Below are positions 25,392-25,589 of a stretch of 64,000 nt of DNA, one piece after another. A program made the translations under genes and the position numbers. The stretch is from Escherichia coli (lineage in GTDB: Bacteria; Pseudomonadota; Gammaproteobacteria; Enterobacterales; Enterobacteriaceae): NCBI RefSeq assembly GCF_003334815.1, contig NZ_QOWO01000008.1. One strand, written 5' to 3'. The first letter of the stretch is position 1; each line of letters begins with the position of its first letter. Below the pieces are notes generated by a model. The model had not been told where the DNA came from. It saw only the letters and a program-made list of their open reading frames with translations, and ran no database searches.

Positions 25392-25415
25392 GAAAAAACC
25401 CCGCCGGTGGCGGGG
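25392..25415 (-). terminator. Intrinsic terminator at the end of the fliC 3' UTR
   Basis: Minus-strand hairpin CCCCGCC-ACCG-GCGGGG followed by U6. Confidence 0.75.
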
Positions 25416-25447
25416 AAGCACGTTGCTGACAAATTACCATTCATGTT

Positions 25448-25546
25448 GCCGGATGCGGCGTAAACGCCTTATCCGGCCTACAAAAATGTGCGAATTCAAT
25501 AAATTGCAATTCAACTTGTAGGCCTGATAAGCGCAGCGCATCAGGC
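25448..25546. repeat. REP/BIME element (two inverted palindromic units) in the fliC 3' UTR
   Basis: GCCGGATGCGGCGTAAACGCCTTATCCGGCCTACA at 25448-25482 and inverted TGTAGGCCTGATAAGCGCAGCGCATCAGGC at 25517-25546, the canonical E. coli REP consensus. Confidence 0.85.
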
Positions 25547-25589
25547 AATTTGGCGTTGCCGTCAGTCTCAGTTAATCAGGTTAGGACGA

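Follow-up and report, generated by a model that had tools for sequence, protein, structure and literature searches.

The fliC 3' UTR of an Escherichia coli strain as the very probable fliX locus, with a seed core that lies in the flank of a BIME-1 repeat

The window analyzed here is a stretch of 64,000 nucleotides from Escherichia coli contig NZ_QOWO01000008.1 (assembly GCF_003334815.1), and within it the flagellin gene fliC and the gene fliA follow each other on the minus strand; the order fliD-fliC-fliA-fliZ is kept in matching genomes. The product of fliC scores 729 bits against the NCBIfam model NF005953 (FliC/FljB flagellin), whose cut-off is 619. The first-pass annotation of this DNA had placed a pair of inverted REPs together with an intrinsic terminator between the fliC stop codon and fliA, and both are confirmed here by a pattern match, by the complementarity of the repeat arms and by a stem followed by a T run. 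The stretch that it had singled out, 25392-25589, covers the feature nearly exactly. The genes and elements are laid out as follows:

25590-27302, minus strand: fliC coding sequence (open reading frame), encoding a 570-aa flagellin, stop codon at 25590-25592; the presumed parent gene of FliX
25271-25589, minus strand: fliC-fliA spacer, 319 bp
directly 3' of the stop codon, minus strand: fliC 3' unique stretch, 21 nt, from reading the sequence
25416-25571, minus strand: BIME-1-type repeat with conserved flanks, delimited by the boundaries of long and short alleles, the family consensus and the artJ paralogue
25547-25571, minus strand: left flank of the repeat, CTGAGACTGACGGCAACGCCAAATT, 25 nt, kept in the family alignment and in artJ
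25518-25546, minus strand: short (Z1-type) REP, GTAGGCCTGATAAGCGCAGCGCATCAGGC, in the orientation opposite to the Y REP
25482-25517, strand not assigned: AT-rich L linker between the two REPs, 36 nt, conserved in the family alignment
25448-25481, minus strand: long (Y-type) REP, GCCGGATGCGGCGTAAACGCCTTATCCGGCCTAC, an exact match to the REP pattern with an internal palindrome; predicted 5' hairpin of FliX-S
25416-25447, minus strand: right flank of the repeat, AACAUGAAUGGUAAUUUGUCAGCAACGUGCUU, 32 nt, ending in AATTTGTCAGCAACGTGCTT; predicted single-stranded seed region of FliX
25393-25415, minus strand: fliC intrinsic terminator with a 7-bp G-C stem, an ACC loop and U6; predicted 3' end of FliX
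24551-25270, minus strand: fliA, start at 25270

The Y REP matches a degenerate REP pattern exactly, where shuffled sequences are expected to give 0 matches and the 64 kb window gives 2, and complementarity between the arms at 25468-25483 and 25516-25531 reaches 94%; together these results indicate that the REPs are real. Only these two REPs are present in the spacer, as a single unit and not as a tandem array, and their typing as z1 and y is based on comparison with the family alignment and with the consensus sequences. A second Y-type REP, with 2 mismatches to the pattern, is found at 63025-63058 on the plus strand, near the end of the window. The terminator reads CCCCGCC-ACC-GGCGGGG on the minus strand at 25415-25399 and is followed by TTTTTT at 25398-25393. 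The fliA promoter region and start are located about 120 nt beyond it. Downstream of this terminator, and 26 nt before fliA begins with its GTG start codon, there is a sigma-28 -10-like element, GCCGATAA, at 25296-25303 on the minus strand, which is consistent with the known autoregulated fliA promoter. Elsewhere in the window, matches above the Rfam gathering threshold were obtained for DsrA (47105-47191, minus strand, 102.5 bits), RseX (55527-55616, plus strand, 96.7 bits) and three tRNA genes (15299-15598, minus strand).

The first-pass annotation had further suggested the fliC 3' UTR as the source of the sRNA FliX, and this suggestion holds up, as the stretch 25392-25589 contains the sites of the published primers for FliX and its shorter form FliX-S, that of the M1 mutation and that of the Northern probe. 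Using the oligonucleotide table of Melamed et al. 2023 (eLife 12:RP87151, PMC10578931), we placed FliX on the window base by base:

25393-25586, minus strand: predicted full-length FliX, about 194 nt; 5' end from primer SM044 (TTGTAACCTGATTAAC...), aligned by way of K-12, and 3' end from the terminator
25393-25497, minus strand: predicted FliX-S, about 105 nt, the more active form; from primer SM673 (GAATTTGCACATTTTTGTAGGCCGG) and the FliX-S gBlock

The 5' end given by the cloning primer for FliX is 4 nt after the fliC stop codon, at 25586, and that of FliX-S is within the linker, at about 25497-25500. FliX-S consists in order of the Y REP hairpin, the single-stranded seed and the terminator. 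The Northern probe corresponds to 25436-25409 with one mismatch. The predicted length of about 194 nt agrees with the 195-nt FliX interval in MG1655 (Bar et al. 2021, PMC8175672) and with the bands of about 200 and about 100 nt. In K-12, FliX has been described as a sigma-28-dependent RNA of about 200 nt that is cut from the fliC mRNA, and both this form and FliX-S of about 100 nt, which contains one REP from downstream of fliC, co-immunoprecipitated with Hfq (PMC10578931). The interval defined here lies in the fliC 3' UTR and on the fliC strand, extends from just past the stop codon to the fliC terminator, and has at its 3' end a rho-independent terminator with a U tail, the Hfq-binding module, made of 7 G-C pairs, a 3-nt loop and U6. 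We consider it very likely that this region is the fliX locus, a fliC 3' UTR yielding the Hfq-binding sRNA FliX. FliX was reportedly first flagged by RIL-seq, by Melamed et al. in 2016. As the RNA is already described in E. coli K-12, the identification is correct and not new. Rfam 15, searched with permissive as well as gathering thresholds, contains no FliX family and, beyond a sub-threshold match to naRNA4 discussed below, gave no sRNA match on the fliC strand, and among the matches listed none had a feature of the RefSeq annotation under the spacer match. FliX being missing from both resources, the practical value of the placement is in the annotation of this strain, with FliX at 25586-25393, FliX-S from about 25497 and the seed at 25433-25418.

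The locus of FliX in K-12 and the one in the window have in common the position in the fliC 3' UTR, the strand, the REP content and the sigma-28 promoter of the parent gene, and between the stop codon and fliA the two spacers share a mean column identity of 98%. They are identical from AAUUUGUCAGCAACGUGCUU through the terminator stem-loop, including the GCA that is changed by M1. The differences consist of two substitutions right past the stop codon (UCC in the window, UUG in K-12), one substitution at the 5' end of FliX-S (25492, C in the window and U in K-12), a U tail that is shorter by one in the window, and 5 bases that differ within the 7 nt just 5' of the seed (25442-25436, GAAUGGU in the window compared to AAAGCGC in K-12). 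At 25436-25442 the allele of the window is also that of NC101, and the K-12 allele is nearer the repeat consensus. The parent fliC of the window is a different flagellin allele, of 570 aa. Upstream, the sigma-28-type promoter was read from the sequence:

27379-27405, minus strand: fliC promoter, TAAAGGTT-N11-GACGATAA, with the transcription start near 27371-27372

This promoter and the 5' UTR are identical to those of K-12, and together with the first 300 nt of fliC the identity is 99%; its position agrees with that of the fliC in-vitro transcript, which starts at -70 (PMC10578931, supplementary file 3). The strict sigma-28 pattern TAAAGNNT-N10-12-GCCGATAA has no match in the window, because the -10 element of fliC is GACGATAA.

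These features are consistent with the following pathway. Sigma-28 RNA polymerase would transcribe fliC from the promoter at 27405-27379 and stop at the terminator at 25415-25393. An endonuclease would cut just past the fliC stop codon to release FliX of about 194 nt, and FliX-S of about 105 nt would arise when the RNA is cut once more, within the AU-rich repeat linker. The terminator hairpin and the U tail would form the Hfq-binding module, with the 5' side shielded by the REP hairpin, and the single-stranded UUUGUCAGCAACGUGC (25433-25418) would base-pair with sites in the coding regions of rpsS, rplC, rpsQ and fliC. Pairing would lower the expression of these targets and act as a late brake on flagellar synthesis. 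The anatomy, the near-identity to K-12 and the conservation of seed, terminator and promoter were determined here, while the RNAs, Hfq binding, targets and phenotypes are those of K-12 (PMC10578931). Given the sequence likeness, we infer that FliX would be made and used in this strain as it is in K-12.

In K-12, the top RIL-seq partners of FliX, among thousands of chimeras, include fliC, rpsS, raiA, rplC and rpsQ, and FliX pairs within the coding sequences of fliC and of rplC, rpsS and rpsQ of the S10 operon, lowering their expression, with FliX-S as the more potent form (PMC10578931). The seed core UUUGUCAGCAA is located at 25433-25423 and occurs once in the window. The M1 mutation changes GCA to CGU within GUCAGCAACG (25426-25424), and the compensatory change TGC to ACG in rpsS-M1 restored binding to FliX-S-M1 (PMC10578931). 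RNAduplex places the seed of the window on rpsS nt 243-262 (CGGCCACGCUGCUGAUAAAA) with -19.8 kcal/mol, at the same site as the rpsS-M1 change, and this site is lost with the M1 seed. The K-12 allele gives -23.3 kcal/mol on rpsS, compared to the -19.8 of the window, which with GAAUGGU instead of AAAGCGC at 25442-25436 is predicted to be without an extra 3-bp contact. For rplC, rpsQ, rpsJ and the 5' region of fliC, RNAduplex returned long, loop-rich duplexes with similar energies for wild type and M1, so that among these five only rpsS has a clean, M1-sensitive predicted site. By eye, the rplC probing fragment of PMC10578931 holds UUUGCUGAC, the complement of GUCAGCAA. At a candidate internal pairing site in the fliC of the window, two bases differ from K-12.

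The predicted fold of the 195-nt RNA has a free energy of -68.4 kcal/mol (z = -4.0, with 0 of 200 shuffles as good), and that of the 106-nt RNA -45.4 kcal/mol (z = -5.4). The minimum-energy fold of full-length FliX brings both REPs together in one long hairpin, and at the base of this structure the 5' CUGACGG pairs with UUGUCAG of the seed with a probability of about 1. For FliX-S the prediction is instead a hairpin of the long REP alone, with GUC left free. In full-length FliX the seed may thus be partly masked by the repeat's left flank, and such masking would account for the higher activity of FliX-S. The computed gain in accessibility is modest, with a mean unpaired probability of the seed (partition function) of 0.55 in FliX-S and 0.40 in the full-length RNA.

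The repeat in the spacer is of the BIME-1 type: between conserved flanks it has one short and one long REP in inverted orientation, separated by a long linker. When 44 copies of the family were aligned, they gave a consensus of about 150 nt, to which the fliC copy is identical at 124 of 140 positions (89%), and its linker aligns with the linkers of these 44 other copies. Gilson and colleagues are said to have named 'A' and 'B' motifs, which may already describe the flank motifs of RIB/BIME-1. BIME-1 elements are made of a z1 and a y REP with a long conserved linker and occur as a single unit (PMC3333891), and the fliC copy shares with this family (RIB/RIP) the inverted z1 and y REPs, the long L linker and the single unit. 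Its position, 3'-terminal in a transcription unit, is also the one that the title of Boccard & Prentki 1993 gives for RIBs. The copy and the family differ at the end of the right flank, which is CAACGUGCUU in the former and CAAUCUGA in the family consensus, and in the spacer after the REP, which is 13 nt long in fliC and 14 in the family. The family consensus reads ...CATCCGGCATGAACAAAGCGCACTTTGTCAGCAATCTGA. At the level of sequence, the seed core of FliX, UUUGUCAGCAA, with the M1 triplet included, is the conserved right-flank motif of the BIME-1 family. E. coli genomes carry a REP-free 30-nt consensus of this flank at 3-24 places each, with a median of 14, and at least one nearly full-length copy of the flank is present in all 5426 of the 5426 genomes. 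For the generic flank, pairing through UUUGUCAGCA is predicted on the validated rpsS site, with -16.5 kcal/mol.

Membership in a repeat family also bears on two Rfam matches that offer other identities for the RNA of this region. According to one, the relevant RNA would be the plus-strand sRNA ES036 (CssrF), antisense to FliX and located in the linker at 25484-25525; RF02751 is indeed the only family that matches the region above its gathering score (25484-25525, plus strand). The score, 38.1 bits against a gathering score of 37.6, is barely above threshold, the match covers just the conserved linker of a multi-copy repeat, its strand is antisense to a gene whose transcription is among the heaviest in the cell, and there is no promoter-like or terminator-like site near it on the plus strand. 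The ES036 family probably models the BIME-1 linker and not a single sRNA gene. Since the matched stretch is repeat linker, the match reflects membership in the repeat and no gene here, and we regard ES036 as a very improbable account of the locus. According to the other, the RNA would be nucleoid-associated and derived from a REP, like naRNA4, a type of RNA that takes part in DNA condensation and binds HU. A sub-threshold match to naRNA4 at 25478-25428 on the minus strand (E = 3e-5) points in this direction, but the score of 41.9 bits is far under the gathering score of 59.5 (RF02564), only the 34-nt REP hairpin aligns with the remainder of the model skipped, and such a match is expected from any Y-type REP; the chance that naRNA4 is the right name for this RNA is accordingly very small. 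As genes at this locus both candidates were rejected, their matches being limited to the repeat linker and the REP hairpin.

The element is variable between strains. The spacer of the window is found at a coverage of at least 80% in 3503 of 5426 complete E. coli genomes. When the same 5426 genomes were searched with a probe of 57 nt across the junction of seed and terminator, they fell into three classes:

3509 genomes: probe covered at 80% or more
1428 genomes: match only from the terminator stem onward
489 genomes: no match; this class includes strains such as BLR(DE3), in which the spacer matches best at a different locus

By these counts about a third of E. coli genomes lack the element; its absence from at least a quarter shows that it is dispensable. 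In five genomes that we inspected, EC958 (ST131), 97-3250, EC6622, DA33137 and WB61, the spacer is short, 163-164 bp compared to 319 bp. In four of the five short forms only about 19 nt separate the stop codon from the terminator, and the missing block, 25571-25416, is the repeat with the seed (L006:684-846 for EC958; L002:2482-2645, L003:2482-2645 and L004:2481-2643). In WB61 (L009:670-720) the initial 33 nt of the long form are retained, and a deletion with the junction CTGACG|CGGGG has taken out the repeat and the seed as well as the terminator stem's 5' half; the annotated fliC of this strain encodes only 325 aa. Both the membership of the seed in a repeat and its presence/absence polymorphism are facts at the level of sequence. 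If FliX acts as proposed, its coupling of flagellar and ribosomal protein synthesis would be strain-variable, and absent for example in EC958 and 97-3250.

A repeat that so many strains lack could also be read as acting in cis only. The region would then be a BIME-1 element and a terminator and nothing else, serving as a 3' stabilizer of the abundant fliC mRNA, as a backup barrier to transcription before fliA, or as a site for IHF or gyrase, and the fragments of about 200 and about 100 nt would be REP-protected intermediates of decay with little regulatory weight. The L linker of BIME-1 often carries an IHF site; the IHF core consensus is WATCAANNNNTTR, and the linker here contains ATTCAA-N4-TTG, a putative site with one mismatch to this core when compared by eye. 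That REPs stabilize upstream mRNA, as the first-pass annotation also remarked, is well established in general; REP and BIME elements are described as mRNA stabilizers and protein-binding sites (PMC3333891). These known roles favor the cis-only reading, as do the 1428 of 5426 genomes in which the terminator is kept while the whole element is absent, and the fact that the seed core is a generic repeat motif (median 14 copies per genome) that is not unique to fliC. Moreover, the chromosomal fliX-M1 mutation is mild in K-12 and leaves motility and promoter fusions unchanged (PMC10578931). The same study, however, supplies several observations that are difficult to reconcile with intermediates of decay: both forms of FliX co-immunoprecipitate with Hfq, thousands of RIL-seq chimeras join FliX to specific partners, footprinting and the compensatory mutation support pairing on rpsS, and reporters of rplC, rpsS and rpsQ are repressed. 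Overproduction of FliX leads to fewer flagella, and the chromosomal M1 mutant has the opposite phenotype, with slightly more flagella and more FlgJ and fliC mRNA (PMC10578931). We therefore consider a role in cis alone unlikely, and the fliX locus remains our reading of the region. Cis and trans roles of the region are not mutually exclusive.

If the seed core belongs to the repeat, other copies of the family become relevant to the origin of FliX. The best match of BLR(DE3) to the spacer of the window lies in the artJ 3' UTR (L010:1173-1375), which, like the fliC 3' UTR, contains past the stop codon the left flank, the Z1 REP, the linker, the Y REP, CUUUGUCAGCAAUCUGA and a terminator (AAGCCGCACCUGCGGCUUUUUU), with 84% mean column identity over 221 alignment columns. 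This copy aligns with FliX beyond the REPs on both flanks (CTGAGACTGA... and ...TTTGTCAGCAA) and has a terminator of its own. The bases past GUCAGCAA differ from FliX, so the CGUGC part of the rpsS duplex would be lost. On this similarity, the artJ 3' UTR is a candidate for a 3' UTR RNA that shares the seed of FliX. 

In order to see the motif outside E. coli, species-representative genomes were scanned with the pattern CATCCGGCA-N8-20-TTTGTCAGCAA. Copies were found in E. albertii (9 per genome), E. whittamii (7) and three Pseudocitrobacter genomes (4 to 10), and other Escherichia gave copies as well. Among the 55 matches that follow a REP, 51 have the 14-nt spacing and the consensus GCCGCATCCGGCATGAACAAAGCGCACTTTGTCAGCAATCTGA, and conservation is at least 90% across TTTGTCAGCAA. 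A terminator-like site was called within 70 nt of 32 of the 55 REP-associated copies in related species, by a crude test for a hairpin plus a T run in which a few of the 32 are weak; most of the remaining terminator-like sites begin 0-8 nt past the motif. As the motif is conserved and, in about half of its copies in related species, found directly before an intrinsic terminator, the insertion of a BIME-1 would deliver a ready-made module of REP hairpin, seed and terminator.

It is conceivable, and we put it forward only tentatively, that FliX was born in this way, when a BIME-1 inserted itself downstream of the fliC stop codon and ahead of the fliC terminator, with the seed (core GUCAGCAA) being the terminal motif of the repeat. 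The nearest precedent is GlnZ, from the glnA 3' UTR of K-12 (Walling et al., bioRxiv 10.1101/2022.04.01.486790), which has a lineage-variable REP in a 3' UTR sRNA. Like FliX it is a 3' UTR-derived, Hfq-dependent sRNA with a long stem, but the seed of GlnZ predates the REP and lies outside it, whereas the seed core of FliX lies inside the flank of the repeat and is absent wherever the repeat is absent. A limited, non-exhaustive search of the literature found no link between BIME or REP elements and sRNA seeds, and PMC10578931 goes no further than to note a REP within FliX-S. If such an origin is correct, other copies, for example that in the artJ 3' UTR, could be seed-sharing sRNAs or competitors of the FliX targets, mobile repeats could be a source of new seed-sharing sRNAs, and the link between flagella and ribosomes would be rewired from one E. 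coli lineage to another, depending on whether the fliC copy is there.

In the scan of species-representative genomes, none of the FliX-type copies came from a main representative of E. coli. Its single FliX-type match (L070) is on a 3.9-kb contig, JAIJJM010000281.1, that is binned as a Collinsella sp. MAG. The sequence of seed and terminator on this contig is almost identical to that of the window, and the contig is probably an E. coli contig misbinned into an actinobacterial MAG.
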